From a phage: a stretch of 64,000 bases of DNA. Positions within the stretch are counted from its first letter, which is position 1. Each line of letters opens with the position of its first letter. This document shows positions 16,971 to 58,330 of the stretch, one piece after another. Location of the stretch: assembly GCA_018027755.1 (NCBI GenBank), contig GCA_018027755.1_4098.1; one strand, given 5' to 3'. The notes below the pieces were generated by a model. The model was not told where the DNA came from, did not search any database, and was given only the letters and a program-made list of their open reading frames with translations. The translations under genes were made by a program, and so were the position numbers.

Positions 16971-16999
16971 TTGACATAAGATATCAGTACTGTATAATG
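16971..16999 (+). promoter_or_regulatory. sigma70-type promoter with AGTACTG spacer motif
   Basis: ttgacataagatatcagtactgtataat. Confidence 0.6.
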
Positions 17000-41093: not shown

Positions 41094-41140
41094 GATTTCT
41101 CTCCTTTATCCATTATACTATATTTAATACAAATAAGAAA

Positions 41141-41159
41141 GCCAGTACAGAGTACTGGC
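41141..41159 (-). terminator. junction terminator hairpin
   Basis: gccagtactctgtactggc. Confidence 0.6.
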
Positions 41160-41166
41160 TTTTACA

Positions 41167-42357: not shown

Positions 42358-42403
42358 AATTCCCCTCCTTATTCATTATACTATATTTAATACAAATAAG
42401 AAA

Positions 42404-42422
42404 GCCAGTATCAAGTACTGGC
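42404..42422 (-). terminator. junction terminator hairpin
   Basis: gccagtacttgatactggc. Confidence 0.6.
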
Positions 42423-42436
42423 ATAGTTTTATAGTA

Positions 42437-43546: not shown

Positions 43547-43554
43547 ATTCACTC

Positions 43555-44730
43555 CTATTCTGGTAAAATCATTTTCTTCATTTTAACTTGTTGTGTACCT
43601 GGACTCTGTTCCTGAAACATAGACCCGTTACCACACCAGTACACCTCATTAGTACCCACTAACGCGTATAACACACCAGAACCACCTTGTACTGAAAATG
43701 CATTAACATCTGGTGCAACATCCATATCCTCATATTGTACCTGGTGGTAATAAGATCTTTCTGATGCAGTAGTAACAGGCCAACCAAGAGGAACACCACT
43801 ACCACATGTATAAAGTTTACCATTCTGTGTCATTGCCATTATAAAATAATTCAAACTGTGATTGTTCATCGACCCAGCATCTGGTATAATACCACTAATT
43901 GCAGGAGTGGTACTAAATGGACTCATGATAATAGTAGTGTCGCCATACCCTATTCCTAAACAATAATCAGTGTTTTTTCCAGCAGTATATACATTAATCT
44001 TATTTCTATTGGATGTAAGTACTGAAGTGGTTTCAGGAGTACATGAAATACCAATAACTGTTCCAGATATATCAGTACTTACCGTAAATGTCGAAAGTTT
44101 AGAAGAACCTGACCCTAAGTTGTAACTTGCGTTATTCCCACATCTGTAGTATTGATTATTTTTAACATAATGGAAAGCATCCCCAGCCGTTGTTCCCGCA
44201 ATTATAGTAACTCCAGTAGCAATCTGAATTGGCGTTGTTTTTCTACCAGTAACACCCAATGCACCTCCTGTATTACGCCCAATCCCATATAAGTCCCCAT
44301 TACTTAACAAAATCAATAACGCACCATTTGATGCAGTAGTTTCAGTAGCAGCTATATCTACTACTGTAGTAAGTGCTGGTATTGTAGACAATAAAGATGT
44401 GATATTAGTCCATCCAGGAACTGGTGATGCAGATACACCGACATAACCCATTTGACCAGCTAAGTAAAATTCTCCGTCAGTCGTAAGTATAATTGTTGCT
44501 GCAAAGAAGCACCAAACATTAGAAACTTTATATGGACACTGTACCCACCCATTTTGCACATACGCAGTGCTATTATTTCCTAGCATATAGTGTGCACCAT
44601 TTCCACGTAGATATAAGTTACCACTATCAAATAACATACCCATATGTGATGGAGATGTACTTATCTTCATAACACCTGAAGGTGCTGGAACTCTGTTTCC
44701 GTACTTAACCATTCTTGCAAAAGGTAACAT
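43555..44730 (-). CDS. RCC1-like beta-propeller repeat protein, MLPF-family paralog
   Basis: Start at MLPFARMVKYGN (44730); the track's MNKGGN extension is the RBS read as codons. Confidence 0.75.
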   Translation of the reverse strand: MLPFARMVKYGNRVPAPSGVMKISTSPSHMGMLFDSGNLYLRGNGAHYMLGNNSTAYVQNGWVQCPYKVSNVWCFFAATIILTTDGEFYLAGQMGYVGVSASPVPGWTNITSLLSTIPALTTVVDIAATETTASNGALLILLSNGDLYGIGRNTGGALGVTGRKTTPIQIATGVTIIAGTTAGDAFHYVKNNQYYRCGNNASYNLGSGSSKLSTFTVSTDISGTVIGISCTPETTSVLTSNRNKINVYTAGKNTDYCLGIGYGDTTIIMSPFSTTPAISGIIPDAGSMNNHSLNYFIMAMTQNGKLYTCGSGVPLGWPVTTASERSYYHQVQYEDMDVAPDVNAFSVQGGSGVLYALVGTNEVYWCGNGSMFQEQSPGTQQVKMKKMILPE

Positions 44731-44775
44731 ATTTCCTCCTTTATTCATTATACTATATTTAATACAAAAAGAAAT

Positions 44776-44794
44776 GCCAGTATCAAGTACTGGC
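44776..44794 (-). terminator. junction terminator hairpin
   Basis: gccagtacttgatactggc. Confidence 0.6.
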
Positions 44795-44801
44795 CTATAT
44801 T

Positions 44802-45539
44802 TTAGACTGAATTGTTAGGATAATATCTCCCACGTCCCCATATTATTCGCACAGCACCACCACCAGCAGCCGTATAAGAAAAATTATCCCATATACTACC
44901 ACCACCACCATACATCTTACCAGCACCACCACTACCAGCACCACCATTATATGAACCATCGTATCTACCGCCAATACCATTAGCACCTTGAACAATGATA
45001 CCAGTACCACCACCCGTACCAATGAACGAGGTATTATAGAATGCACCACCACCACCGCCGCCGCCAGCACCATTTTCACCAGTGATTGCATCTCCGTTAC
45101 CACCTTTACCAGTGTAGCCACCAGCACCACCACCAATGACTGCACCACCACTTACACCAGCGTTGCCCCCATTACCACCACCATCATTAATAGCGTTAGC
45201 AGCTTTCCCACCTAGTCCACCAACCCTATATTCACCAGTGAAGCTAACACATAGTTTTTCAGTTCCACGATATAAACCGTTTTCAACTGCTGTAGTAGTG
45301 TTGGGATGTGTAAGAGAAACACTTAAGTACTCACCACTAGTAACCGGAATATTATTACGCCACGATAAGCCGCCGCCAGCACCACGTTGACCACCCGGCG
45401 AAATAACACATACTGATATTTCGGTAACGCTAGCAGGAACTGTAAATTGTGTTGTTCCTATTGTCGTGATTAATTGTTCACCATGTGGCTTATATTCAAT
45501 TTCATTCCCGTACTTAATCATTCTTCCAAAAGGTAACAT
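44802..45539 (-). CDS. glycine-rich MLPF-family protein (245 aa)
   Basis: MLPFGRMIKYGN followed by long poly-Gly runs (GGNGGNAGVSGGAVIGGGAGGYTGKGGNG...); no Gly-X-Y periodicity. Confidence 0.7.
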   Translation of the reverse strand: MLPFGRMIKYGNEIEYKPHGEQLITTIGTTQFTVPASVTEISVCVISPGGQRGAGGGLSWRNNIPVTSGEYLSVSLTHPNTTTAVENGLYRGTEKLCVSFTGEYRVGGLGGKAANAINDGGGNGGNAGVSGGAVIGGGAGGYTGKGGNGDAITGENGAGGGGGGGAFYNTSFIGTGGGTGIIVQGANGIGGRYDGSYNGGAGSGGAGKMYGGGGSIWDNFSYTAAGGGAVRIIWGRGRYYPNNSV

Positions 45540-45586
45540 AATTCCCTCCTTTATTCATTATAATATATTTAATACAAAAAAGAAAA

Positions 45587-45605
45587 GCCAGTACAAAGTA
45601 CTGGC
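45587..45605 (-). terminator. junction terminator hairpin
   Basis: gccagtactttgtactggc. Confidence 0.6.
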
Positions 45606-45611
45606 ATTATA

Positions 45612-46802
45612 TTATAACTGTCTTGGAGTATCCAGTACATATCTATTTGTACGAGGACCACCATCATCATCAGTTCCTGTTGAATATATATTTTTCATAT
45701 CAGCAGTTAGGAAAGTACGATACGAACCGCGATATATTTTAATTTTATCATACATAGAATATGTTATTTCTGACGGCAATGGACATGCAGTAAATTTACC
45801 AATGGTAACATTAGAACCAACACCCAATGTGCCAGCATAACTACTCGCATTTAAACCAGTTGCATATACACCTGCACTCGTAACTAGTATACTAGATTGT
45901 GTTGGGTATCCAGTATGAATTGAATACAAAGTACCGGGTGGTAAGGTTGTACTATTATTTCCTAAAACTCCATTAACAGTGCTAGATGTAGTTTTATTTC
46001 CCCATGCTCCATTATTAGCTAATCCACCAACTAGAAACTGACGTGCTCCTGTATTTGGATTCTCCACCAAAGCACTGACTGAACCCATTGAGCATCCAGT
46101 GTATTGTAACGTTTTTGTGTATGTGGTACTTGGCTGATATAAAGTATATTCATTATATAAAGTCCATGTAGTGCTGGAACTTATACCGGATGTACCACCA
46201 CCAATATATAAATTATTTTGTGTATCAAAAAACATTGCACAGCTATTTGTTGACATTATTTGTGCAATATCAACATCTGGTGTTACAGCTTTAACAAATG
46301 AACCATCGGTTATTTGTTGAGTTTTTCCAGTACCATCAGCGAATTGTTTAGCCCCACTCCACCCAGTACTCCATATTGTATTATTATCCATTAAGAAAGT
46401 AAACCATGTAGTACCTGCATACATCTGTTTAATTGAAGTACTTGAACTTTGTTTGTACAATTTTTCAATATATTGGTTATAACTTAAAAATGATGTAGTA
46501 CTAGTTTCTAAACCAATATAACCACCATAGCCACAATAAAAATAATTTAAGTCCTTATCTTGTACTAACAAAGTTCCTTCTGACATCCAACAATCGTTAA
46601 CGTTTTCTCTAATTAATGTCCATGTTCTTAATGCAGTGTTGTTTCCTCTCCCAAACTTCCCAAAACTATTATTGCCTCGTGCGTATAGTTGACCATCAGT
46701 ATAAAGTACAACAACATCACTATTGATTGGTATTATTTTCTTAATTTGAAGAGGCTCAGGTGTAATATTTCCATAATCAAACATTCTAACAAAAGGTAAC
46801 AT
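45612..46802 (-). CDS. RCC1-like beta-propeller repeat protein, MLPF-family paralog
   Basis: Start at MLPFVRMFDYGN (46802); near-duplicate of 41167..42357. Confidence 0.8.
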   Translation of the reverse strand: MLPFVRMFDYGNITPEPLQIKKIIPINSDVVVLYTDGQLYARGNNSFGKFGRGNNTALRTWTLIRENVNDCWMSEGTLLVQDKDLNYFYCGYGGYIGLETSTTSFLSYNQYIEKLYKQSSSTSIKQMYAGTTWFTFLMDNNTIWSTGWSGAKQFADGTGKTQQITDGSFVKAVTPDVDIAQIMSTNSCAMFFDTQNNLYIGGGTSGISSSTTWTLYNEYTLYQPSTTYTKTLQYTGCSMGSVSALVENPNTGARQFLVGGLANNGAWGNKTTSSTVNGVLGNNSTTLPPGTLYSIHTGYPTQSSILVTSAGVYATGLNASSYAGTLGVGSNVTIGKFTACPLPSEITYSMYDKIKIYRGSYRTFLTADMKNIYSTGTDDDGGPRTNRYVLDTPRQL

Positions 46803-46848
46803 ATTTCCTCCTTTATTCATTATACTATATTTAATACAAAAAAGAAAA

Positions 46849-46867
46849 GCCAGTATCAAGTACTGGC
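46849..46867 (-). terminator. junction terminator hairpin
   Basis: gccagtacttgatactggc. Confidence 0.6.
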
Positions 46868-46873
46868 CTATAT

Positions 46874-48043
46874 TTAAACTGGCGAATCTAATATAAATTC
46901 TAAACTACTAATGCCACCATATGTGACATCTGTTCCCGTGCTATATACAAAATTACCATCAGTTATATAAGTTCGGTTATAACTACCTGCCATCTGTGAC
47001 TTACTATAATCAAACCCATCAGGTACGATTGCTTTGGTATATACTAATGCATTAGTAGATGTACCAATACCTAACATACCAGCTTGTGTAGATTGATTGT
47101 AGCCGCAACAATATATACCATCTGTTGTAGCAATAACTTGGTTATAATATGAAGTATTGTTAGCAATGCTTACTACATCACCAGGTGGCATTAGTGATGC
47201 TGTTTGTACCTCAAATGCTCTATAATCTTTGAGAGAACCATCTTTCCCATCTGCTTGTGCACCAAATATTCTTGAACCACCATTTGCGATGATAGTTTTA
47301 CCAGTGGGATCAGTGCCTATTGCCATTGCCATTGAAGTACCATTATTCACATAGTACTTTATATTAATTGTATTACTTAAGCTGGTAGGAGCACCATAAT
47401 ATATATTATATAACTTACTTCCTGAACTTGTAACTGCATTGACTCTTCCTGTATAAAATAACCATCCTTGGTTTGTAACATAACCGTGCATTAAATTACT
47501 TGCAAACAATTTAACAGGTAATTGATTTGCTGCGGTAGGAACAGTACTTTTGACGAATCTACCAGAAACATGGTTAATTGTTGTCCCATCACCCAACTGA
47601 CCATCCGACCCTACTCCAGTACTCCATATTGTTTGGTCTGATAGTAACACACTTGTAGTCTGATAACTAACGGCTATATCTAATATTGGTAATGTTAATG
47701 TATTGAATATAGGCATAGCAGATGTCCATATTGATACTCCTGACCCTTTCATACCAACAGTTGTTGAACTTCCACTGTACCATATTTCATTATTGCTTTT
47801 CTTAACAACTATCGACGTGGCTCCCATCCAAAAATCTTCAACACCAGAAGTACTAAAAGTCCATGTAGTAACAGTATTTTTGTGACCTAAACCCAAAATA
47901 CCATATGCATTATCACCACGCACATATAAATCACCACTGTTTGTTAAAACAGCAACATTATAGTTGTTAGCAAGTATTTTTTTAATATTTGGTTTAGCAG
48001 GTGCAATATTCCCGTAATCAAACAATCTCACAAAAGGTAACAT
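46874..48043 (-). CDS. RCC1-like beta-propeller repeat protein, MLPF-family paralog
   Basis: Start at MLPFVRLFDYGN (48043); motifs YVRGDNAYGILGLG and WSTGVGSDGQLGDG. Confidence 0.8.
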   Translation of the reverse strand: MLPFVRLFDYGNIAPAKPNIKKILANNYNVAVLTNSGDLYVRGDNAYGILGLGHKNTVTTWTFSTSGVEDFWMGATSIVVKKSNNEIWYSGSSTTVGMKGSGVSIWTSAMPIFNTLTLPILDIAVSYQTTSVLLSDQTIWSTGVGSDGQLGDGTTINHVSGRFVKSTVPTAANQLPVKLFASNLMHGYVTNQGWLFYTGRVNAVTSSGSKLYNIYYGAPTSLSNTINIKYYVNNGTSMAMAIGTDPTGKTIIANGGSRIFGAQADGKDGSLKDYRAFEVQTASLMPPGDVVSIANNTSYYNQVIATTDGIYCCGYNQSTQAGMLGIGTSTNALVYTKAIVPDGFDYSKSQMAGSYNRTYITDGNFVYSTGTDVTYGGISSLEFILDSPV

Positions 48044-48088
48044 AATTCCTCCTTTATTCATTATACTATATTTACCCCAAAAAGAAAT

Positions 48089-48108
48089 GCCAGTACTTGA
48101 GTACTGGC
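48089..48108 (-). terminator. junction terminator hairpin
   Basis: gccagtactcaagtactggc. Confidence 0.6.
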
Positions 48109-48114
48109 ATTATG

Positions 48115-49224
48115 TTATTTTGGTAAATCAATTTTAGTAAAGACTGCAACATCTGCACTTGCACCTGGAATGGCGTAATACGATCCAGTACTATATACAT
48201 TCCCGTCTTTGGTTAATAATGATGTTAATCCGTCACTAAAAGCAACATCACTAATCTCACTAACTTCTACAGGTAATTGTAAATTAGCAGCACTATAGAT
48301 AGCACCCGTTTGAGAATTGTTTAATCCCAAACCACGGTTTCCCCCAATACCTTTCTGATATGCACTAGTTAATATAATTTGCGTAGCCGTGCTTGTTGCC
48401 TCTGAATTTGTCATAAACAAAGGTGAATTATTAGGTAAAGTACTTACAGGAACTGCTTTGAATGTAGTTGAATCTGAACTAAGAAAGTTTGGAGTTGTAC
48501 CACATGTGAAATATGATGTACCATTATAGTAATTGAGTGTATGTCCACCAATAGCTGCATCTATTACACCAGAACTACGCAGTCCCCAAATGTTAACTTG
48601 TGTTCTGTTCCCTGTGCCATGTAATCCACGGTCATTCCACCCTGAACTATATAACTTATTATCTATGCTAATATACATACTATCATTAGGAGTAGACATA
48701 ACTTTACGCACATTAGAAGCACATAGTGTTAATGTATATATTGATGAAGAACCAATCCCCAATACACCACGGTATCCATTAGCCCCAGCACCATAGAGTA
48801 CTGAACTTGAACTGAGTACAAATATTACACCACCATTGCATACAATATTAGCAATTTGATTCACAGGAATTGTATTTGTAAACCACTCCGTTCTATCAAC
48901 TAATGTAGTACTGTAAGAAGTTGTTGATGATGATGTGAACCAAAATGTTTCACCTGATGTCCATATCGTATTGTCATTTTTAATAATAACAAGTGTTCGT
49001 CCTCCAGTGAAAAAATTAGAAACATCTGCACTTACTAATGTCCAAGAAGATACCGTGTTTTTATTACCATTTCCAGATTCACCACCTTGATTTCTGCCTA
49101 TGTAATACAATTCATGTGAATCAGTCAATACGAATTGACCTTGAGTAGAAGCACCAACTTTAATTATATTTTTAGGACCAGAGGTAATATTCCCATAATC
49201 AAATAGTCTTACAAAAGGTAACAT
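48115..49224 (-). CDS. RCC1-like beta-propeller repeat protein, MLPF-family paralog
   Basis: Start at MLPFVRLFDYGN (49224) after AGGAGG; ~8 nt after the upstream gene's stop. Confidence 0.75.
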   Translation of the reverse strand: MLPFVRLFDYGNITSGPKNIIKVGASTQGQFVLTDSHELYYIGRNQGGESGNGNKNTVSSWTLVSADVSNFFTGGRTLVIIKNDNTIWTSGETFWFTSSSTTSYSTTLVDRTEWFTNTIPVNQIANIVCNGGVIFVLSSSSVLYGAGANGYRGVLGIGSSSIYTLTLCASNVRKVMSTPNDSMYISIDNKLYSSGWNDRGLHGTGNRTQVNIWGLRSSGVIDAAIGGHTLNYYNGTSYFTCGTTPNFLSSDSTTFKAVPVSTLPNNSPLFMTNSEATSTATQIILTSAYQKGIGGNRGLGLNNSQTGAIYSAANLQLPVEVSEISDVAFSDGLTSLLTKDGNVYSTGSYYAIPGASADVAVFTKIDLPK

Positions 49225-49232
49225 AATTCCTC

Positions 49233-50435
49233 CTATTGTTGCCATAACTGCGTTGGCATTAATGTTAGTGTAGTAATACTATAAGTGCCATCAGGCAATC
49301 TACCACCATTACCATTCCAGCCACCACATGCATATAATTTATAATCTTTAGTAATTATTATGGTTCTGCTCCAATCTTTAGATGCCATAAGAACATTGTC
49401 ATAACCACCACTTATTGCATTAAGATTAAAAATATTCCAAGTCCTAACTAATGTATTAGTTCCATTACCTTCTTGACCGTATCCGTTAGCACCACTACTT
49501 CTAACATATGGTGCGTATTGTGCCATAGGTGCACCAATTGATGCATTTCCCATATTACTTGGACAAATAAAAGTACTGTACTTACTTACATCAACCGTGA
49601 CCGATGTGTTCCTAATTGGTGTTAGCTGATTTACCGATGTAGTCGTACCATTACCAGCTTGTCCAGTACTGTTAGCCCCGCTATAATATACAGGCCCACC
49701 AGTAGTAAACCACCAAGTAACATCGTATGTAGTACTAATATGTTCGACATCACTCATCACATATTTGTTCAAATATATCATAGAACTAGCACCACAACCA
49801 CTTTCACCGAAGTTATCCTTACCACAAAACCATGCCTTTTTATTTGATTTAATATAGTGCGTTCCTTGTAATGAACATGCCATATGTGTAACTTCACCCA
49901 TATTAGTCATAACTGTTAGTGTAGGTATGGAATTTTGATTACCAGACCCACATTCACCATTGGTATTTCTTCCACACGCAATTACTCTACCATCGGTTAA
50001 TAATATTCTAGTACTTTCACCTATATATACACTCTTGATCATATTAGCCATAACACCAATTTTATTAAATGAAGCAGTAACATCAGTCCATGTTCTCAAA
50101 TAACCATTAACAGGTGTTGCATCTCCATAATCAGAAAATGCACCAACCGACCCAGTGTAGTATATTTTATTATCCAAATCAATCATCAATGAACCTTGAA
50201 CACCAAGCCAAAAGGCTGCACATCGCGTTGCAAGTACTGTAAATGACGCAACTGCTGCTGAATTCCCAAGACCAAATTGATAAAAGTTATTACTACCATA
50301 ACCATATAAAGTATTAGTTGGGCTATGTAGATACATACAGTTTGTATAATGTTGTTGTAAAACATCTGAGAACTCTACAGGTTCTGGACCTGGTGCAATA
50401 TTTGCGTACTTAACCATTCGTGCAAAAGGTAACAT
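49233..50435 (-). CDS. RCC1-like beta-propeller repeat protein, MLPF-family paralog (400 aa)
   Basis: MLPFARMVKYAN; motifs YGYGSNNFYQFGLGN and YSGANSTGQAGNGTT. Confidence 0.8.
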   Translation of the reverse strand: MLPFARMVKYANIAPGPEPVEFSDVLQQHYTNCMYLHSPTNTLYGYGSNNFYQFGLGNSAAVASFTVLATRCAAFWLGVQGSLMIDLDNKIYYTGSVGAFSDYGDATPVNGYLRTWTDVTASFNKIGVMANMIKSVYIGESTRILLTDGRVIACGRNTNGECGSGNQNSIPTLTVMTNMGEVTHMACSLQGTHYIKSNKKAWFCGKDNFGESGCGASSMIYLNKYVMSDVEHISTTYDVTWWFTTGGPVYYSGANSTGQAGNGTTTSVNQLTPIRNTSVTVDVSKYSTFICPSNMGNASIGAPMAQYAPYVRSSGANGYGQEGNGTNTLVRTWNIFNLNAISGGYDNVLMASKDWSRTIIITKDYKLYACGGWNGNGGRLPDGTYSITTLTLMPTQLWQQ

Positions 50436-50481
50436 ATTTCCCTCCTTTATTCATTATACTATATTTAATACAAAAAGAAAT

Positions 50482-50500
50482 GCCAGTATCAAGTACTGGC
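50482..50500 (-). terminator. junction terminator hairpin
   Basis: gccagtacttgatactggc. Confidence 0.6.
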
Positions 50501-50507
50501 ATAGTAT

Positions 50508-51635
50508 TCAAAAAGGTAAATCAATTTGCTTAGTAATAATAGTATCTAACGGTATTGAACACAATGAGAAATTCTTTCCACCCGTATTTTTAGGATTATA
50601 TCCATTCATCCATACATTATTACCTTCGTAAAATGTATTCCAGTATAAAGACCCACTATATCGTGTATTCGAATTGAACGATGTAAAATTGAATTCTTGA
50701 AATGCTGTAAAATATGGAAGGGAACTTGAACTACTTCCCGTAAATGGGGTATGCCCAGTTGCTATTAGTTTGTTTGTATCTGCATTAATTAAAAATACAA
50801 CACTAGTCGAATAGTCCAACGAATCAGGATGATATATATTACTCATATCACCTATAGTAAAACCAACATCAAAAACTTTACTATGTGCACCACTACCAGC
50901 AAAAGTAGTTCCAGTTGCATATATTTTATTATCAGATGTTATCATTACAAAACCAACACCAGAAACAAAACTGCATTTTATATCATAAGATATATCATCA
51001 AACAACGGAACAAATGTGGTTGCATCACCCGATGTTGCTTTAACTTGAAAGCTGTTATTTGAACCTGAACCATATACAGTTCCATCGTTTTTAATCTTAA
51101 ACAATGTATCGCCAAGGTAACCGCCAAATATATTATCCACATTAGTGTCAAGTACAGTCCACGCTGAAACATAATTTTTATGTCCTAAACCTAATGCACC
51201 ACTTCGATTCCATCCTCTTCCATAAAGTGTTCCGTCTTTCATTAATATAAATGCTGTATAACCACATAACATTTTTTTAATTTGGGTAACATCTATACCA
51301 GTGAAATACACAGCCCAGTCAGTATATCCTTGTTGGAAAGTATTAGAATTCGTGAATGCATATGTTGAACCTGAACCATATATTTTATCACCTTTAATAA
51401 CAACGGAAAACGATCCTAACCATAAGTCATCAACTTCAGTTGTGATTTGTTGAACTGCTCCTAACGATACAAACTTTGTACTTAAACCCGCATTATAGTT
51501 TGAATCTTCACCGTGTGCATATACAGTGCCATCTTGCATTAGAAACATTTCAAGAGTGTAACTAACAACACTTTTCTTTATATTATTAACTTCGATTATA
51601 TTCCCATAATCAAACATTCTAACAAAAGGTAACAT
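50508..51635 (-). CDS. MLPF-family paralog (375 aa), Gly/Ser/Thr/Asn/Tyr-rich
   Basis: MLPFVRMFDYGN; weaker RCC1-like motifs. Confidence 0.7.
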   Translation of the reverse strand: MLPFVRMFDYGNIIEVNNIKKSVVSYTLEMFLMQDGTVYAHGEDSNYNAGLSTKFVSLGAVQQITTEVDDLWLGSFSVVIKGDKIYGSGSTYAFTNSNTFQQGYTDWAVYFTGIDVTQIKKMLCGYTAFILMKDGTLYGRGWNRSGALGLGHKNYVSAWTVLDTNVDNIFGGYLGDTLFKIKNDGTVYGSGSNNSFQVKATSGDATTFVPLFDDISYDIKCSFVSGVGFVMITSDNKIYATGTTFAGSGAHSKVFDVGFTIGDMSNIYHPDSLDYSTSVVFLINADTNKLIATGHTPFTGSSSSSLPYFTAFQEFNFTSFNSNTRYSGSLYWNTFYEGNNVWMNGYNPKNTGGKNFSLCSIPLDTIITKQIDLPF

Positions 51636-51707
51636 AATTCCCTCCTTTATTCATTATACTTTATTTAATACAAATAAGAATTCCTGTATCGAGTACTGGC
51701 ATTCAAT

Positions 51708-52856
51708 TTATTGTAAAAAGGACATATCTACTTCTGTATAACTAAGAATGTTTTGACCAGCAATTCCACCCATTACTACTATTGCATACCCACAATAATA
51801 TAATTTCCCAGTGTCCGTAAGTATAAGTGAACCAGAAGGTGTTCTTACCAAATTACACGAACTATTAAAAGAAGTATACGAAGGAGTATAGGAGTACTGA
51901 TTAATATTATTACCAACACCTAATTGACCACCCCTATTCGAACCAGATGCATAAAGTACTTCATCTGCTTTGACAATATGTGATGCCATGTTAGCAACAC
52001 ATGCATATACACCATATACCCCTGTACTCAATAATGTAGGAGTCTTGTATTGAATATCAGTACTAGTAGATGTTCCACCTGTGCCAAATTCATTACCATA
52101 TTGTGCTCCGTACTGCTTCCCACATGCGTACAAATTATTATCCGATTTGATAAAAAATGTACTCTGATAACTTACATCAAAATCTATAACATCCGAAGAA
52201 ATCATCGTTACCCCAGTAATCGAAGTTTGATTACCAGTACCCAACTGGTAGTAATAGTTAAAACCACAACCCCATAAAGTATTATCTTCTCGCAAATAAA
52301 TGTTACCAACAGCCTTTTTAACAGATGTTATAGTACTGACCTTCTTGAATGTATTAAATGAATCAATGTTAGTACCATCTCCAAAGGAGGATATGTTCGA
52401 TGCGTTATTAGCACCACAACAATATAATGTCCCATCCTTCAGTACTAAATTTACCTTCATATCATTAAAACTGCTCATGTACTCAATATCAGATACACTA
52501 ATACCACCTGATGTTATCCACGTAGTACAGTCCGTCCATAACGTCTTCCTATCAGTTACCCCAGTAAATGCCTTCGTGTTACCAGTGATAAACACTTTAC
52601 CAGTACCCTTTTCTTCATACAATTGACAATCACTACTGTTATCTTCCAATAAAACCCTCTGTACATTCTCTGCACAAAGAATAAATTTACTCGAAGCTAC
52701 TCCTGTACCAGTACCCCAATTCGTCGCAGAAGATGCATACAACTTGTGTGTTAGTGTATCATGCAAATACATAGAACCACTAGAATATATTTTAAAACGC
52801 CCTTCTTTCTCAGGTATAATATTCCCATAATCAAACATTCTAACAAAAGGTAACAT
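51708..52856 (-). CDS. MLPF-family paralog, Gly/Ser/Thr/Asn/Tyr-rich
   Basis: Start at MLPFVRMFDYGN (52856); first gene of the minus-strand array. Confidence 0.7.
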   Translation of the reverse strand: MLPFVRMFDYGNIIPEKEGRFKIYSSGSMYLHDTLTHKLYASSATNWGTGTGVASSKFILCAENVQRVLLEDNSSDCQLYEEKGTGKVFITGNTKAFTGVTDRKTLWTDCTTWITSGGISVSDIEYMSSFNDMKVNLVLKDGTLYCCGANNASNISSFGDGTNIDSFNTFKKVSTITSVKKAVGNIYLREDNTLWGCGFNYYYQLGTGNQTSITGVTMISSDVIDFDVSYQSTFFIKSDNNLYACGKQYGAQYGNEFGTGGTSTSTDIQYKTPTLLSTGVYGVYACVANMASHIVKADEVLYASGSNRGGQLGVGNNINQYSYTPSYTSFNSSCNLVRTPSGSLILTDTGKLYYCGYAIVVMGGIAGQNILSYTEVDMSFLQ

Positions 52857-52904
52857 ATTTCCTCCTTTATTCATTATATCATATTTACCCCATAAACAAA
52901 ACCC

Positions 52905-52933
52905 TTGACAACCTTCCAGTACTGATGTACTAT
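52905..52933 (+). promoter_or_regulatory. sigma70-type promoter for the small-ORF array
   Basis: ttgacaaccttccagtactgatgtactat then AAGGAG SD and the first array gene. Confidence 0.5.
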
Positions 52934-52958
52934 AGAAGGAATATAAGGAGAACTACAC

Positions 52959-53186
52959 ATGACAAATACTCTTAAGTACTACCTCAATACTCTAAATGAA
53001 CTAGAGTACGCGAAGTTTCTCGCGGATAGTTCGTGGCTAATTGAGCTAAAAACACATAACAGTACTGGATGTAACCTAATGCTGAACAATGCACTTGATA
53101 CCCTTGTAGTGAGTATTTTACACAGCAACATCTGCGGGGATAGAAACAAACAATTATCAAAAATCTTAGTACTGCTATCTATATGA
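52959..53186 (+). CDS. small-ORF array member
   Basis: First member; has AAGGAG SD; C-terminal hydrophobic tail. Confidence 0.55.
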   Translation: MTNTLKYYLNTLNELEYAKFLADSSWLIELKTHNSTGCNLMLNNALDTLVVSILHSNICGDRNKQLSKILVLLSI

Positions 53187-53386
53187 ATATCGAACAGTAC
53201 TACATCGATGCACTACCAACAAAAGGTCTACGTGAAAGCCTACTGCATACACAAACTAATTTCAAACACCTCAAACGTAGCCCTAAACTCCTGAACTCGT
53301 ACAGGAATAATAACATAAGAAATGCTTTACAAGGGGTAGAATGTATGCAATACTATTACATCCTTACCCTATTAATCGAGTACTAA
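53183..53386 (+). CDS. small-ORF array member
   Basis: ATGA overlap with previous gene. Confidence 0.55.
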   Translation: MNIEQYYIDALPTKGLRESLLHTQTNFKHLKRSPKLLNSYRNNNIRNALQGVECMQYYYILTLLIEY

Positions 53387-53387
53387 T

Positions 53388-53597
53388 ATGAATACTGAAC
53401 ATAAAGAATTCTACACCAAATACCTTAGCAACGAAGAACAATTGTTTCTAAGGAGTGTATCACCTGTAAGTACCAATACTCAATTCGGTAGAGATTGCTT
53501 TAATAATTGTATACGTAGTACTCTAGAAGCAATCGAATGCAATAACAAAAATATTATGTACTCAGGTTTAATAGGACTAATATATTTCTATGAATAA
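53388..53597 (+). CDS. small-ORF array member
   Basis: MNTEHKEFY...LIGLIYFYE; near-paralog of 56340. Confidence 0.6.
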   Translation: MNTEHKEFYTKYLSNEEQLFLRSVSPVSTNTQFGRDCFNNCIRSTLEAIECNNKNIMYSGLIGLIYFYE

Positions 53598-53784
53598 TCA
53601 TAAAGATTTCTATTGTAGTAAACTACCCAAACAAGAACAGCTATCATTCTCTTTAGCACCACCTATGAGAAAGGATAATCTGTATTATAATTACGATTTC
53701 AGGATGGTGACACGTTATGCAATAGAACATCAGTTCCCTGAAACTAAGTACCGCTCTATCCTGAACCTCATCTTTAAGTTCTAA
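53590..53784 (+). CDS. small-ORF array member
   Basis: MNNHKDFY...LNLIFKF. Confidence 0.55.
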   Translation: MNNHKDFYCSKLPKQEQLSFSLAPPMRKDNLYYNYDFRMVTRYAIEHQFPETKYRSILNLIFKF

Positions 53785-53836
53785 AAGGTACACCAGGGAC
53801 CGAGTACTTTAATATAGTAAGGCTAATTACATTATA

Positions 53837-54022
53837 ATGAATCATATAAGCTACTACTACCAACAACTATCCGACAGAGACAAGTACAGTCACAACTCCC
53901 ATGTGTGGTACTACAAACGCGGCAGTATAAGAGACAAACAACATTACTTCTGTATTTCTATTAAAGAAGCACTGACAACTAAGTACACGTACCGAGCAGT
54001 ACTTAAACTAATCTCTATTTGA
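53837..54022 (+). CDS. small-ORF array member (..VLKLISI subfamily)
   Basis: Conserved C-terminus shared with 54031, 54225 and 54413. Confidence 0.55.
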   Translation: MNHISYYYQQLSDRDKYSHNSHVWYYKRGSIRDKQHYFCISIKEALTTKYTYRAVLKLISI

Positions 54023-54030
54023 GGTAATAT

Positions 54031-54216
54031 ATGAATACATTTGAGTACTATACCAATAAACTATCTATGCCTGAAAGATCTCATCTCTATGTGTGGAGAA
54101 ATGCGTATAAAAGCGGCAATAAACTTATACAAAGAAATTCCCTTACAGTGTGTACAAATTTAATTAAAGCAGAGTACCGCACATATATTGAAGTACTGAA
54201 GCTGATAGCAATCTAA
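54031..54216 (+). CDS. small-ORF array member (..VLKLIAI subfamily)
   Basis: ORF in track. Confidence 0.55.
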   Translation: MNTFEYYTNKLSMPERSHLYVWRNAYKSGNKLIQRNSLTVCTNLIKAEYRTYIEVLKLIAI

Positions 54217-54224
54217 GGTACTCT

Positions 54225-54404
54225 ATGCAAGAATTCTATATCTATAACCTCCAGCACAAAGATAGATACAACTATAATAAATTCCAAAGGTACTACACAG
54301 TCGGGAACAAAAGAGATAAAAAACGATACTTTCTATCATGTACAGTAGAAGCACAAAACGAAAAGTACACGTACAGAGAAGTACTGAAACTCATCTCTAT
54401 GTAA
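54225..54404 (+). CDS. small-ORF array member (59 aa)
   Basis: Hand-translated MQEFYIYNLQ...REVLKLISM; below the track cutoff. Confidence 0.5.
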   Translation: MQEFYIYNLQHKDRYNYNKFQRYYTVGNKRDKKRYFLSCTVEAQNEKYTYREVLKLISM

Positions 54405-54412
54405 GGAATAAT

Positions 54413-54592
54413 ATGCAAGAATACTATATAGAACACATAAGCATTAAAGACCGTTTCATGTACGACACCTTCGTGAAGTACTACAACCTGGCAACTAACA
54501 GTACTAAAAATATTAATCTCAATAGCTGCATTCATCACGCACTAACAAAAGATAATCCCTTCAGGGAAATCCTCGCACTAGCATCTGTATAA
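54413..54592 (+). CDS. small-ORF array member
   Basis: Track ORF 54338..54592 trimmed to the family-type start MQEYYIEH. Confidence 0.5.
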   Translation: MQEYYIEHISIKDRFMYDTFVKYYNLATNSTKNINLNSCIHHALTKDNPFREILALASV

Positions 54593-54602
54593 AGGAAACC
54601 AA

Positions 54603-55262
54603 ATGAAACTTAATGCACACAGCAAACAATACCTTAAGCACTTTAAGTACCTCAACAGTATTCAAGCAGAATCTTTTACACCAGCATATACGTATCACCC
54701 TAATGTACTAAAGAAACGAAATAAAAAGAAAAAATCCAGAAATGTTCTCGTATCTAAGAACCTCAAATCGTACTTGAAGAAAAATAATATAGCTCTTGCT
54801 TTTATTAATATCTATAATACTGATTTAAAAGTATTGAGTACTAATACCAGCACAAAAGCACTAAAGAATGCATCTATCTATATACACATGGATAATATCC
54901 CGTGCACTATAATTCTATCTTTCGGGAATGTATACTTCTTCGGGAATTGTAATAGCACCCATGATATCAGTACTGCACAATTCCAAATCGGAGATATGTA
55001 CTGCATGGGTTCAGAAAAAATACACGATAACATGCACTTCTTCCAAAAGCAACGTACTAACGAAACTGATACAGTACTGCAATTCCTCAAAGAATTACAA
55101 AACAAAGAATTATCCGAGGAAGAAGAATTCATGTACAGTACTGTAATCGATAATCCAGAACTCTATAAAAACGCGTACAAACTAACAAAACATGTACAGG
55201 AACTTATCAGTACTGATAAGAAATTTCATCACCTCATTACGTATATTTCAAACTATGTATAA
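54603..55262 (+). CDS. hypothetical protein (219 aa) embedded in the small-ORF array
   Basis: Larger ORF unrelated to the array family; SD AAAGGAAACCAA upstream. Confidence 0.55.
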   Translation: MKLNAHSKQYLKHFKYLNSIQAESFTPAYTYHPNVLKKRNKKKKSRNVLVSKNLKSYLKKNNIALAFINIYNTDLKVLSTNTSTKALKNASIYIHMDNIPCTIILSFGNVYFFGNCNSTHDISTAQFQIGDMYCMGSEKIHDNMHFFQKQRTNETDTVLQFLKELQNKELSEEEEFMYSTVIDNPELYKNAYKLTKHVQELISTDKKFHHLITYISNYV

Positions 55263-55283
55263 AGAATACTAAAATTATCTATA

Positions 55284-55382
55284 ATGAATTAATGAAAGAA
55301 TGTATTAAAGGTGCTATTAACCCTAAAGATACGTATGACTTGTACTATGCAGTACTAACCCTTGTTTTCACGAAATAACACA
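55284..55382 (+). pseudogene. array-family C-terminal remnant (32 aa)
   Basis: Short ORF ...DLYYAVLTLVFTK resembles only the family C-terminus. Confidence 0.3.
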
Positions 55383-55386
55383 TAAT

Positions 55387-55578
55387 ATGAATAACCACAA
55401 AGAATACTACATAGAGAAACTCCCAATGTATCTCCAACACCTTGTACCAACAGAACCATTGGGTATAGAAAAAAACTACGAAAAAGACTACTTCATTCAG
55501 TGCACTAAATCCTCGATATATATTGAAGACTATAATCGAGTACTGTATCACATCCTTTTACTAATATATAGGTACTAA
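55387..55578 (+). CDS. small-ORF array member
   Basis: MNNHKEYY...LLLIYRY. Confidence 0.6.
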   Translation: MNNHKEYYIEKLPMYLQHLVPTEPLGIEKNYEKDYFIQCTKSSIYIEDYNRVLYHILLLIYRY

Positions 55579-55579
55579 T

Positions 55580-55762
55580 ATGCACAAAGAATACTACACA
55601 CAATTTCTCCCCAGCATTTTTGAACACTACGCCAGATACAAAGTCCCTATGGATAACGATTTGGCAGTACTGGGATTCAATAACTGCATAGAACGAAGTA
55701 TAGAAAATAGTAGTAGTTATGACCAGCTATATAACACTATCCTACTTATATTCAGGTACTAA
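55580..55762 (+). CDS. small-ORF array member
   Basis: MHKEYY...LLIFRY; start 2 nt after previous stop. Confidence 0.6.
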   Translation: MHKEYYTQFLPSIFEHYARYKVPMDNDLAVLGFNNCIERSIENSSSYDQLYNTILLIFRY

Positions 55763-55763
55763 T

Positions 55764-55952
55764 ATGCATAAAGAATACTACACAAAATATTTCCCAATGT
55801 ACCTCAGTACTAATCTATTAGATAAACCTCGCGGTATCAATGCACAAAACGATAAAGTGTACTTTACTATGTGCACTAAAGCATGTATACTAGATTTTGA
55901 CAGCTATCATCGAGTACTGTATCATACCCTGTACCTAGCTTTCGTATTCTAA
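55764..55952 (+). CDS. small-ORF array member
   Basis: Track ORF trimmed to MHKEYYTKYF. Confidence 0.55.
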   Translation: MHKEYYTKYFPMYLSTNLLDKPRGINAQNDKVYFTMCTKACILDFDSYHRVLYHTLYLAFVF

Positions 55953-55961
55953 AAGAACAAT

Positions 55962-56147
55962 ATGCATAAAGAATTCTACTTAAGCCATCTCGATCTAAAC
56001 TCCCAAATGCTTATACCACTAATCCCAATAGATATCAAGGATAAGAAAAATACCGAACAATTCATTTACCATACACAGTGTGCGATCACCCCAAATTACA
56101 TTCCATATGAATTGTACTACATTATCGCCCTAATATATAGGTACTAA
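55962..56147 (+). CDS. small-ORF array member
   Basis: MHKEFY...ALIYRY. Confidence 0.6.
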   Translation: MHKEFYLSHLDLNSQMLIPLIPIDIKDKKNTEQFIYHTQCAITPNYIPYELYYIIALIYRY

Positions 56148-56148
56148 T

Positions 56149-56334
56149 ATGCATAGAGAATACTACACACAATTTGTTAAAGGGAACTACAAACATGCCG
56201 TACCCAGAACCCCTTTAAATTCTCATGACCCAAGTACTATATTCTTGTTTAATGACGCAATACGTACAGTACTCAATACTAAAGATGAAGATGTGCAGTA
56301 CGTATTCTTACTATTACTTATATACAGACACTAA
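56149..56334 (+). CDS. small-ORF array member
   Basis: MHREYY...LLLIYRH. Confidence 0.6.
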   Translation: MHREYYTQFVKGNYKHAVPRTPLNSHDPSTIFLFNDAIRTVLNTKDEDVQYVFLLLLIYRH

Positions 56335-56339
56335 CTAAT

Positions 56340-56549
56340 ATGAATAAAGAACATAAAGAATTCTACTCCAAATACATAAGCCCCTCAGAACAAATGTTTC
56401 TAAGAACTACTCCACCTTTAAGTACTAATACATTTTTCGGCAGAGTATGCTACAATAATTGTATTCAAATGACTTTAAACGCAAACGAAGATGGTAACAG
56501 TACTAACCTGTACTCAGGTATCATAGGTATACTATTCCTGTATGAATAA
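56340..56549 (+). CDS. small-ORF array member
   Basis: MNKEHKEFY...GILFLYE. Confidence 0.6.
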   Translation: MNKEHKEFYSKYISPSEQMFLRTTPPLSTNTFFGRVCYNNCIQMTLNANEDGNSTNLYSGIIGILFLYE

Positions 56550-56730
56550 TTTCAAAGACTTCTATTTGAATACACTACCTACTGTACTTTCTCTAAGTGC
56601 TCAATGTAAAATCCCGCTGGATAATGCTTACGCCAGATATAGCTATTCCATAACTGTTAATCGATGTATAGAGAATCATTGCAGTACTAACCAGTACTAT
56701 AACATAATCCTACTTATATTCAGGTACTAA
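56542..56730 (+). CDS. small-ORF array member
   Basis: MNNFKDFY...LLIFRY. Confidence 0.6.
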   Translation: MNNFKDFYLNTLPTVLSLSAQCKIPLDNAYARYSYSITVNRCIENHCSTNQYYNIILLIFRY

Positions 56731-56731
56731 T

Positions 56732-56914
56732 ATGAATAAAGAACATAAAGAATTCTATATACGAAAACTAACATTCGTCCCCGTAAGAATATATAAAGAA
56801 TGCGACCCAAGATTATACCTATGGCACTTCAATGAGTGCATAAAAGATTCTATATACCATAAGAACTATAAAGAACAATTGTGCTCAGTACTAACACTAG
56901 TACTATCATATTAA
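56732..56914 (+). CDS. small-ORF array member
   Basis: MNKEHKEFY...LVLSY. Confidence 0.6.
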   Translation: MNKEHKEFYIRKLTFVPVRIYKECDPRLYLWHFNECIKDSIYHKNYKEQLCSVLTLVLSY

Positions 56915-56929
56915 TTAATAGAGAATACT

Positions 56930-57121
56930 ATGTATAAAAACTTCTATATAAGTAAACTAAAAGAAAATGAACAAGTATGGATTAGATCTATAATTCCACT
57001 GGCATTTAATAGATATGCATTTAACAGATGTACCGAGATTGCTATAGACCCTTATAATATTAAAGAGAATGTACAGTATAATCAGTACTACTATATCTTA
57101 ATGCTTATATATAGAAAGTAA
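56930..57121 (+). CDS. small-ORF array member
   Basis: MYKNFY...MLIYRK; last member. Confidence 0.55.
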   Translation: MYKNFYISKLKENEQVWIRSIIPLAFNRYAFNRCTEIAIDPYNIKENVQYNQYYYILMLIYRK

Positions 57122-57759
57122 TTAAACACATAGAGACAGGGGAAGCTCCTAGTGAACAACCTTTATGTACAGGCGAATTGTTAAAATTCAGCCTGGACAA
57201 ATGCGATCACTAGGATTCTCCCCAGGCTAAACCCCGTAATCATAGGTAGTCATAAGTAATCATATATAAACATTTATATGAGCACCGTAGAATCACAGAA
57301 TGATTATATATGATTCAGTACTGATTAGTATAGACAAGATTGCTCAAGAATGCACGGAAATGTGTGTGAATGATTCAGTACTGATATCCCACTAAGTAGG
57401 CAGAGGAAGTCTGCCGTACTTTGTAGTTTCCAAGCTCCTTTTCCATTTTGCAAATTACATCAAATGTAATCAAAAGTAATCACACAATGATTAGTACTGA
57501 ATTATTACTTTCACCTTAATTACAATTACCCTTTTACCCTTCGGGGTAAAATTCCATTACCCCTTGAGGCTCCAGCAAAAAGTTGGTTAGTACTCCATCC
57601 TAAATCTCGATCCTAAAAATTTTGGAGTACCTATGAAATAAAAGTTGGATCTTCGAAAGTTGAAATTTACGTTGGGACGTTTATGATTTGTGGGATATAA
57701 TGATGTTTGTAGTCGGGTAGTTCTCAAGAATATCAGTACTGAATGATGAAAGAAAGCTA

Positions 57760-57788
57760 TTGACTTTATGATTCAGTACTGTATAATG
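57760..57788 (+). promoter_or_regulatory. strong consensus promoter with no downstream ORF
   Basis: ttgactttatgattcagtactgtataat then gttttacat; the next ~1.3 kb has no credible ORF. Confidence 0.5.
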
Positions 57789-58149
57789 TTTTACATAGAG
57801 AGATGAGTTGCCGCAAACAATTCATTCACTCTACTTCCTGTCGTGAGACAGTACAGAAAGATAGTTCCTCCTATGGGTGGTACATCTTTTAGAACCTCTT
57901 TTTTCGTAATATGAACAGTACTGATATTAACAGAATGGTGTCAGTACTGATTTTAATTTAATGCATTATGCCACCAGCACAAGCTGGTGGATTCCCTCTA
58001 ACAGTATTCAGTACTACATGATGGTCTTCATCCTCCTAGGGTAACATAGTGAGGGCTATGATGGCAGTACTGAATACTCCCTTTCAAAAGATAGATCTAT
58101 GGTATAGTACTGACGGATTTTGGGCGTAGTTACCCTGGATGGATTTTGG

Positions 58150-58330
58150 GCGTAGATATGTCTAGCCCTCCAGAAGTCTGGAAGTAAAGATGGCTATCCA
58201 TCTAGACGGCTAAACGGCTAGATTTCTGGATGGCTGGATGGCTGGATGGCTGGATGGCTAGACGTTTGGACGGCTAAACGGCTAGATGGTTACACGTCTG
58301 GAAGTATAGACGGCTAAATCAAAATTTTAT
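58150..58330. repeat. iteron-like tandem repeats
   Basis: GGATGGCT x4 tandem (58231-58262) flanked by two copies of gacggctaaacggctagat, plus repeated ttttgggcgta. Confidence 0.6.

Follow-up and report, generated by a model that had tools for sequence, protein, structure and literature searches.

A clade-restricted tandem array of small paralogous genes, probably arranged as a translationally coupled operon, in Asteriusvirus jumbo coliphages

Is a run of very short open reading frames (ORFs), laid end to end on one strand of a phage genome, a set of genes, and if so, what could it be for? The question is raised by positions 52959–57121 of a 64,000-nucleotide stretch of phage DNA (GenBank assembly GCA_018027755.1, contig GCA_018027755.1_4098.1), which was analyzed at its full length and is called the window below. 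The window comes from a 121Q/PBECO4-like jumbo coliphage of the genus Asteriusvirus. A sequence-only reading of the window had described the locus as about 18 paralogous ORFs of 59–69 amino acids, packed stop to start, and had likened it to the gene families that arise in arms races. We are confident that the array is real and co-transcribed, that it is probably a translationally coupled operon, and that it encodes a clade-restricted paralogous family of predicted soluble helical mini-domains, with a fold that has no detectable relatives. From its context we infer, tentatively, that the array may be an early battery of small host-directed binder proteins, acting in takeover, anti-defense or exclusion.

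The array is about 30 times denser in ORFs than expected by chance. It holds 19 ORFs of at least 55 amino acids that begin with ATG on the + strand and two on the − strand, compared with a mean of 0.56 and a maximum of 3 in 300 dinucleotide-preserving shuffles. The ratio of nonsynonymous to synonymous substitution rates (dN/dS, or ω) in frame is 0.41 in comparison with phage slurp01, 0.25 with E9.1, 0.47 with 121Q and 0.25 with A4, whereas the same four alignments read in the two other frames give 0.92–1.99. The sequence-only reading had held that a lack of purifying selection in the inferred frame would argue for a noncoding repeat; instead, the frames are under purifying selection (0.25–0.47 in frame against 0.9–2.0 out of frame), which indicates that the array genes are protein-coding. 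This selection is relaxed about two-fold relative to the neighbors, with ω measured against UE-S1 at 0.375 for the array and 0.161 for 23 neighboring genes at 17–37 kb. When 190 orthologue pairs, which are not phylogenetically independent, were mapped onto the columns of the family profile, ω was 0.19 in the low-entropy core columns and 0.42 in the remainder. The highest value was found in the loop at columns 46–52 (0.55 pooled, 0.62 in one comparison), no region exceeded 1, and no coarse signal of diversifying selection is apparent.

The ORF listing and inspection of the junctions resolve the array into 17 ORFs of 59–75 amino acids and one of 219, all on the + strand. The run of small ORFs had been recognized correctly but its count of 18 had not, as the eighteenth is the unrelated 219-residue ORF. 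Two listed ORFs, 54338–54592 and 55719–55952, are over-extended, and their true starts are the internal ATGs at 54413 and 55764, use of which restores the stop-to-start pattern. The first cistron (52959–53186, 75 amino acids) is followed by a 67-residue member of subfamily C, with C terminus ..LLIEY (53183–53386), whose start overlaps the preceding stop as ATGA. A two-gene unit of subfamily A comes next, consisting of a 69-residue member (53388–53597; phrog_11711, E 1.7e-12) and a 64-residue member (53590–53784) that overlaps it by 8 nt. Subfamily B, with C terminus ..VLKLISI, occupies 53837–54022 (61 residues), 54031–54216 (61 residues), 54225–54404 (59 residues) and 54413–54592 (59 residues); the member at 54031 has a GAGGT Shine-Dalgarno (SD) core at −7.0 kcal/mol and is present in E9.1 but absent from slurp01, 121Q and UE-S1. 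The 219-residue ORF (54603–55262) and a deletion scar (55255–55378) interrupt the family. The remaining members all belong to subfamily A, with C terminus ..LLLIYRY, and lie at 55387–55578 (63 residues; phrog_11711, E 6e-28; the sequence chosen for the structure model), 55580–55762 (60 residues; reached through TAA-T-ATG, the Arg-Tyr codons before it holding an AGGT core), 55764–55952 (62 residues), 55962–56147 (61 residues), 56149–56334 (61 residues, with no Cys), 56340–56549 (69 residues, with no SD, at +0.4 kcal/mol), 56542–56730 (62 residues, with an 8-nt overlap), 56732–56914 (60 residues) and 56930–57121 (63 residues, the last member). A search of the 64-kb window with a hidden Markov model (HMM) of the family found no extra copy outside the array, and only a start-less C-terminal fragment in a 124-nt gap within it.

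Homology can be demonstrated for 16 of the 17 small ORFs, so that the paralogy proposed from sequence holds for all but the first. Pairwise identity among window members is 10–59%. As the first HMM contained all 17 members, homology was retested with independent subfamily profiles drawn from 99 unique sequences in seven phages. Subfamilies A and B align over their full length with an hhalign probability of 96.7% (E 3.5e-10), C aligns with A at 91.5% (E 8.8e-7), and B with C at 89%. The first ORF, placed in the array by its size class and position, reaches 0.8–3.9% with each of the three; its orthologues are present in the six relatives whose family members were catalogued by HMM, and the JNE01 array is also headed by a first cistron of like size class (2068–2313). 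By these comparisons, the array consists of 16 demonstrable members in three subfamilies and a similar-sized leader gene of doubtful kinship. The N-terminal motif, M-(N)-x-H/K-E-[YF]-Y, and the C-terminal types ..LLLIYRY and ..VLKLISI described earlier are real. The central Cys motif is real in part, being found in 11 of 17 members and 46 of 99 unique family sequences, with one member lacking Cys altogether. The 219-residue ORF shows no relation to the family (hhalign probability 0.3%). It matches phrog_29152, annotated as being of unknown function, and gave no Pfam or PDB match, enzyme domain or helix-turn-helix (HTH). Its 23 homologues all fall within the Asteriusvirus clade and are truncated in two Salmonella phages, and it occupies the same position in the arrays of JNE01, A4, 121Q and UE-S1. 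An AlphaFold model of it was unusable, with a predicted local distance difference test score (pLDDT) of 37.7.

The family appears to be restricted to the Asteriusvirus clade. A profile search of 5.8 billion proteins gave 57 family hits, and 1.84 billion cluster representatives, scanned exhaustively with an HMM, gave 33 family clusters, all of 57–75 residues. Every hit with a source name comes from an Asteriusvirus-clade phage or an E. coli assembly, most hits being metagenome contigs without a name, and even the most divergent clusters, from phages JNE01 and Turkey5, belong to Asteriusvirus-like coliphages. At the nucleotide level, matches to the 4.3-kb region come from 121Q/PBECO4-group jumbo phages of Escherichia and Salmonella, including slurp01 (90% identity over 100% of the query), E9.1 (96.8% over 69%) and 121Q (88.8% over 79%). 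More than 30 deposited phage genomes have the orthologous array in their annotation. In the PHROGs v4 database, 11 of the 17 members match phrog_11711, annotated as being of unknown function, at E ≤ 0.001, with the best match (6e-28) covering profile positions 1–62 of 62. This cluster, 121Q gp249–265, slurp01 PSLUR01_00152–167 and phAPEC6 gp542c and gp545c are the same genes as those of the array, but phrog_11711 covers the ..IYRY subfamily only, and it is profile–profile comparison that links the ..VLKLISI and ..LLIEY subfamilies to it in the present analysis.

How would so many short genes be expressed? The array is divergent from a block of RCC1-like β-propeller genes, and the 84-nt gap between the first of these and the array contains a sigma70-type promoter-like site, as the sequence-only reading had noted. 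The site, TTGACA-17 nt-TACTAT (52905–52933, + strand), scores 10 of 12 in a consensus scan and carries an 8-bp palindrome, CAGTACTG (52917–52924), in its spacer. It is followed by a strong SD, TAAGGAG (52944–52950), which lies 8 nt 5' of the first ATG and, at −9.3 kcal/mol against the anti-SD, is the strongest of the array. The promoter hexamers, their spacing and the downstream SD are kept in all seven related phages, even in A4 and JNE01, which are divergent, and stand among bases that vary; the AGGAG core of the SD is also kept in all seven, as TTAGGAG in UE-S1. A terminator scan of the + strand found no terminator-like site inside 52959–57121. The first such hairpin 3' of the array, GGCAGAGGAAGTCTGCC with a weak T tract (57396–57425, + strand), lies within a strongly structured stretch: the minimum free energy of 57110–57460 is −96.3 kcal/mol, compared with −70.1 in shuffles (z −4.6). 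This flank also includes a long hairpin formed by two copies of GATTCAGTACTGAT.

The stop-to-start packing reported for the array is borne out by its junctions, which consist of TAA-N-ATG (+1), spacers of 5–15 nt, and overlaps of 4 and 8 nt. In order, the spacings in the window are −4, +1, −8, 52, 8, 8, 8, 10, 124, 1, 1, 9, 1, 5, −8, 1 and 15 nt, the 124-nt spacing being the deletion scar. In the seven phages together, 112 of 121 junctions measure at most 17 nt, with modes at +1 (32 junctions), +8 (19), −8 (15) and −4 (6), and 117 of 128 stops are TAA. Anti-SD duplexes are weaker at array starts (median −3.8 kcal/mol) than at the starts of 57 other genes of the window (−6.1) and stronger than at random ATGs (−1.6; p = 0.003 for both contrasts). 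Beyond the strong TAAGGAG of the first gene, 12 of 18 array starts have a short AGGT, AAGG or GAGG core (−3 kcal/mol or better) and about five have none. The earlier statement that most genes lack any SD was therefore overstated, although the SDs are weaker than those of other genes and about a quarter of the junctions are without one. In the recurrent junction ..tat AGG tac TAA t ATG, an AGGT core sits 6 nt 5' of the ATG, within the final codons of the gene before it. Over seven phages, and in cases that are not phylogenetically independent, the penultimate Arg is encoded by AGG in 24 of 24 cases with the following ATG 1–2 nt away and by AGA in 8 of 10 others. Translational coupling classically shows itself in this way, with a strong first SD and, at junctions this tight, further SDs that are weak, embedded or missing. 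The array shows tight or overlapping starts on one strand, one promoter and strong SD at its head, weaker SDs downstream and no internal terminator-like site, and is probably arranged as a translationally coupled operon. Of the two explanations that had been offered for the reported lack of SDs, coupling is well supported, and unusual initiation is not needed because the end of the preceding coding sequence itself supplies short SD cores.

AlphaFold2 was run on the member at 55387 with a 52-sequence family alignment. The model has a mean pLDDT of 90.2 and a predicted template modeling score (pTM) of 0.74, with helices at residues 3–9, 14–17, 30–45 and 49–62, suggesting that the members are all-α four-helix mini-domains. 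The conserved columns, M1, E5, Y/F6, Y7, L11, F36, C39 (46 of 99 sequences), T/I40, L/I44, Y/L53, Y54, I/V56, L57, L59 and I60, can be read on the model as the hydrophobic core of a helical bundle, and columns 13–35 and 45–52 are highly variable. A search with the model found no relative in PDB or BFVD, and sequence searches of Pfam, NCBIfam and PDB with the members were empty. Tyr makes up 10.7% of member residues, compared with 5.7% in other genes, and isoelectric points (pI) range from 5.3 to 9.6, half being above 8.5. Two other protein types were considered and rejected. A small membrane protein of the holin or exclusion type would require a transmembrane segment, and none was found in any member (maximum 19-residue Kyte–Doolittle hydropathy ≤ 1.13); the hydrophobic C-terminal run is only ~8–10 residues long. 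A Zn-ribbon or Cys-motif protein would require four Cys/His ligands, but the members have 0–3 Cys (median 1) and the family a single semi-conserved Cys column (46 of 99).

The locus is set in a window of low GC content (~0.33) in which mainly + strand genes extend to 37 kb, followed by the − strand RCC1-like block at 38.5–52.9 kb, the array and an ORF-poor stretch. A single tRNA-Thr gene, with anticodon TGT, lies at 1519–1593. The codon usage of the array sets it apart from most of this DNA. C-ending NNY codons, which are the preference of highly expressed E. coli genes, make up 0.50 of the total in the array and 0.45 in the 219-residue ORF, compared with 0.21 in the RCC1 genes and 0.29 in the genes at 1–37 kb. 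At four-fold degenerate sites, the array and the 219-residue ORF have C at 0.17 and T at 0.27, compared with 0.06–0.07 and 0.44–0.46, respectively, in the rest of the window. The genes at 59–64 kb are likewise high in C-ending codons. The usage in the array would suit genes translated strongly and early with host tRNAs, but may have other causes, such as a different origin. Together with the −35 TTGACA, which the RCC1 genes lack, the shift to C-ending codons leads us to infer that the array would be expressed early and at a high level.

The number of full-length copies differs between close relatives, with 17 in the window, 21 in E9.1, 20 in slurp01, 16 in 121Q, 14 in UE-S1, ~17 in A4 and ~15 in JNE01. 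Relative to E9.1, the window is missing about one and a third members, from codon 6 of member 11 to approximately codon 21 of member 12. The joint is a TACTA microhomology, and the resulting scar consists of a five-codon stub, MYKEY* (55255–55272), fused to the start-less last 37 codons of the next member (55265–55378; HMM match to positions 26–62). The gene pairs at 53388/53590 and 56340/56542 are a duplicated two-gene unit whose first genes are 59% identical and whose 8-nt overlap is retained in both copies. The array locus is 88–90% identical to 121Q and slurp01, while the 17–37 kb region is 97.5% identical. Most paralogues have recognizable orthologues in other phages, and the retention of these orthologues alongside changes in copy number suggests that the family is old and maintained, with units still gained and lost. 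The label of an arms-race family therefore fits only in part. Copy turnover (14–21), the scar, divergence above that of the surroundings and ω of 0.375 versus 0.161 speak for it; the absence of any region with ω of 1 and the persistence of the paralogues as orthologues speak against it.

What would such proteins do? The tentative proposal of a host-directed battery draws on the host-type promoter, the codon usage, the absence of the family from a virion proteome, the accessory distribution, the copy turnover, and the pairing of a conserved core with a varied surface. In this model, host sigma70 RNA polymerase would probably read the operon from its one conserved promoter soon after infection, producing a single mRNA of ~4.3 kb with 18 cistrons. 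Ribosomes would load at the strong SD of the first cistron and pass from gene to gene by termination–reinitiation, with downstream starts lying 1–10 nt past, or 4–8 nt inside, the preceding stop and carrying embedded 4-nt SD cores or none. Because translation would be coupled from one head, all of the paralogues should be made together and in similar amounts. The products would be soluble, Tyr-rich four-helix mini-domains of ~60 residues that share a hydrophobic core and differ in surface and charge (pI 5.3–9.6), and each paralogue could have its own host target. The set would have been built by old tandem duplications, with gain and loss of units continuing. A bolder and rather unlikely form of the proposal is a phage mini-binder repertoire, in which one orphan scaffold carries ~16–21 surface specificities, made stoichiometrically, each neutralizing a different factor of host immunity or physiology.

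Several observations weigh against the host-directed proposal. No member resembles a characterized protein by sequence or fold search, so that function can be argued from context only, and no anti-defense (anti-CRISPR-type) match by sequence or structure was found among the members. There is no signal of diversifying selection, with ω below 1 in every region, and old paralogues of 10–59% identity that are kept as orthologues fit stable phage housekeeping roles equally well. The array may have internal promoters, for example TTGACA-17-TATCAT at 55897–55925, although promoter-like hits within it are no commoner than chance. In favor of the non-virion role that the proposal supposes, the phAPEC6 virion proteome lists the RCC1-like gp549 and gp551 and no member of the small family, to which phAPEC6 gp542c and gp545c belong (PMC7247149). 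This absence is weak evidence, as small proteins are often missed by mass spectrometry of virions.

An alternative that we consider improbable is that the members regulate the phage's own program, for example as small transcription factors, anti-sigma factors or DNA-binding proteins, possibly acting on promoter elements that contain AGTACT. The proteins are small and helical, half have a pI above 8.5, their orthologues are retained under purifying selection, and CAGTACTG is ~60-fold over-represented in the window and present in many promoter-like sites, including that of the array itself. However, searches of Pfam, NCBIfam and folds revealed neither an HTH nor any other sign of DNA binding, a need for sixteen divergent regulators spanning pI 5.3 to 9.6 would be unusual, and whole members are freely lost between near-identical phages.

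The RCC1-like block on the other side of the promoter raises a further possibility. It contains 11 full RCC1 copies in the window, and about eight of the 11 genes are preceded by a common cassette, made up of a GCCAGTACTnnGTACTGGC hairpin and T-run, a TAAATATAGTATAAT box that lacks a −35 element, and a strong AAAGGAGG SD. With its own terminator, promoter-like box and SD, each such gene appears to be a separate transcription unit of a different promoter class. Along 39890–52960 (− strand), the GCCAGTACTnnGTACTGGC hairpin with its T-run is followed by TTAAATATAGTATAATGAATAAAGGAGG before the ATG, and the cassette has been duplicated along with the genes. At 37838–38273 (− strand), two short ORFs of 111 and 56 residues match the RCC1-like family and are probably remnants of a degraded twelfth copy. 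The small proteins could be cognate chaperones, assembly factors or inhibitors of the propeller proteins, which would explain the side-by-side expansion of two families that, at 11 full RCC1 copies and 16–17 small ORFs, are the large tandem ones of the window and are adjacent and divergent in all seven Asteriusvirus loci examined. We find this partnership doubtful. The RCC1 genes are separate units while the small ORFs share one sigma70-type promoter, the copy numbers of the two families do not match, and some RCC1 proteins are listed in a virion in which no small-family member is (PMC7247149). Outside the genus, Yersinia phage fHe-Yen9-04 (Eneladusvirus) has five RCC1 genes that abut an ORF-free stretch of ~2.2 kb, the same ORF-poor element as that beyond the array, but lacks the small-ORF array itself, as does GAP32 with its single RCC1 gene; no named family hit comes from either phage, though most hits are without a name. 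As RCC1 genes occur elsewhere without it, the array looks like an Asteriusvirus-specific insertion between two older elements. The pairing with the propeller genes that the sequence-only reading had floated is thus not supported.

About as doubtful is the idea that the proteins serve in competition with other phages or mobile elements, through superinfection exclusion or anti-satellite activity, rather than acting on host defense or metabolism. It shares the context of the host-directed proposal, namely a locus that is probably early, accessory, clade-restricted and copy-variable. However, nothing specific points to such competition, and known exclusion proteins are commonly membrane-associated, while the members here have no transmembrane segment.

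A precursor function is very improbable. In this scheme, the ORFs would encode peptides like those of ribosomally synthesized and post-translationally modified peptides (RiPPs), with a conserved leader and a variable core, processed by the embedded 219-residue protein. Tandem small ORFs with a conserved N terminus, variable middle and frequent Cys, and a larger ORF at a conserved position, give it some appeal. In contrast, the model is a confident globular four-helix fold with both termini in the core, the C terminus is as conserved as the N terminus, Cys is absent or single in most members, and the 219-residue ORF is truncated in two Salmonella phages and has no enzyme domain. That the array is a noncoding DNA repeat or a set of spurious ORF calls, as the shortness of its ORFs, its weak SDs and a GC skew that is negative although the genes lie on the + strand might suggest, is effectively refuted by the frame-specific selection, the ORF density and the confident fold obtained from the family alignment, the skew being accounted for by amino-acid make-up (few G-starting codons and many Tyr, Asn and His) and distinctive synonymous usage, and the segment 52000–60000 giving no Rfam match at E ≤ 1.

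Two features of the surrounding DNA deserve description in their own right. The first is the ORF-poor 2-kb stretch 3' of the array, at 57122–59145, which is more conserved than the flanking genes. Its nucleotide identity to six relatives is 0.81–0.94, including JNE01 and A4, which have only 25–31% of the 17–37 kb region in common with the window at the megablast level, and positions 57622–57671 do not differ among the seven phages. Sigma70-like promoters occur on both strands of the stretch, together with four copies of ATTTTGGGCGTA and an 8/16-nt tandem array of CTGGATGG and CTAGACGG at 58188–58316, which is recognizable in the ORF-free stretch beside the RCC1 genes of fHe-Yen9-04 (76% over 109 nt, E 3e-17). 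No Rfam match was found in 57122–59145, and it is a candidate replication origin, regulatory hub or cluster of noncoding RNAs. Within it, a near-consensus promoter, TTGACT-16-TATAAT (57760–57787), is followed ~130 nt on by a 14-bp hairpin of two CAGTACTG copies with a T-run (57916–57949); there is no ORF between them, and 57760–57960 is a candidate small RNA. The second feature is the palindrome itself. CAGTACTG has 57 copies in the window, where 0.95 are expected, of which 13 are in 57316–59076 and one is at 52917–52924 in the array promoter. It often occurs as TTCAGTACTGAA and often directly 5' of a −10 box, in the arrangement TTGACA-N8-CAGTACTGTATAAT at 16985, 31639, 57774 and 62225, and GTACTTGAC and GTACTTGCA are common at −35 boxes. 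Copies are also found inside ORFs, four of them within the 219-residue ORF. The AGTACT core is abundant in the ORF-free region of fHe-Yen9-04, with 28 copies, partly as a 20-bp tandem repeat. The palindrome is probably a clade-wide promoter or operator element.

All features overlapping the 4.3-kb region have the deposited annotation 'hypothetical protein'. What was already known is that the genes are deposited as such and clustered in PHROGs with unknown function; we found no description, in the papers searched, of the function, fold or operon architecture of the family, nor a transcriptome of the phage genus. New here are the joining of three subfamilies into one family, a test that the genes are coding, a predicted fold, a description of the coupling architecture and its embedded SD cores, the restriction to one clade, and a map of copy turnover. 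Should the members prove to be host-directed effectors, the locus would offer 16–21 short, confidently foldable orphan proteins for defense and toxicity screening in E. coli, from phages already considered for therapy against O157 and avian pathogenic E. coli (APEC) strains. With 18 cistrons and SD cores inside coding sequence, the operon also lends itself as a natural system for testing translational coupling over a long range.

The closest functional parallels to a host-directed array are the early clusters of host-takeover and anti-defense proteins of T4-, T5- and T7-type phages and the anti-CRISPR operons, which are mixtures of unrelated genes. Like these, the array consists of small soluble orphans that are tightly packed behind a host-type promoter, accessory and strain-variable. 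Unlike them, it repeats one scaffold 16 times and has no HTH regulator resembling the anti-CRISPR-associated (Aca) proteins, the sole non-family gene of the operon (219 residues) containing neither an HTH nor any other Pfam domain.

In its evolution, the array resembles the genomic accordions of poxviruses, exemplified by K3L amplification (cited in PMC13359090), which are likewise tandem families at a more diverged locus whose copy number differs between close relatives. However, accordion copies are recent, nearly identical and expanded under a defined host restriction, whereas the array varies in copy number but its copies, at 10–59% identity, are ancient, individually conserved and evolving at ω below 1. 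A mini-binder repertoire, if that is what the array encodes, would be a slow-moving phage counterpart of viral multigene families and accordions, and would provide a set of new anti-defense or takeover proteins with a new fold. Tandem lineage-specific expansions are a recognized phenomenon in jumbo phages (PMC7824862; PMC5646251; PMC13282480; PMC13359090), to which the array adds one more. One of these reports mentions a tandem array in 121Q without specifying which, and this may or may not be the small-ORF array (PMC5646251). As in a described jumbo-phage expansion, a small gene has been tandemly duplicated within one lineage, which has been read as genome growth by duplication; the array differs from that expansion in that its members are old and divergent, number 14–21 against more than 30 there, and lack a metal-binding motif. 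In its architecture, the array shares with the translationally coupled operons of bacteria and phages its stop–start overlaps, 1-nt spacers, weak downstream SDs and SD cores within upstream coding sequence, and it stands out from the usual examples as an unusually long chain, with 18 cistrons in 4.2 kb, that is kept over seven phages.

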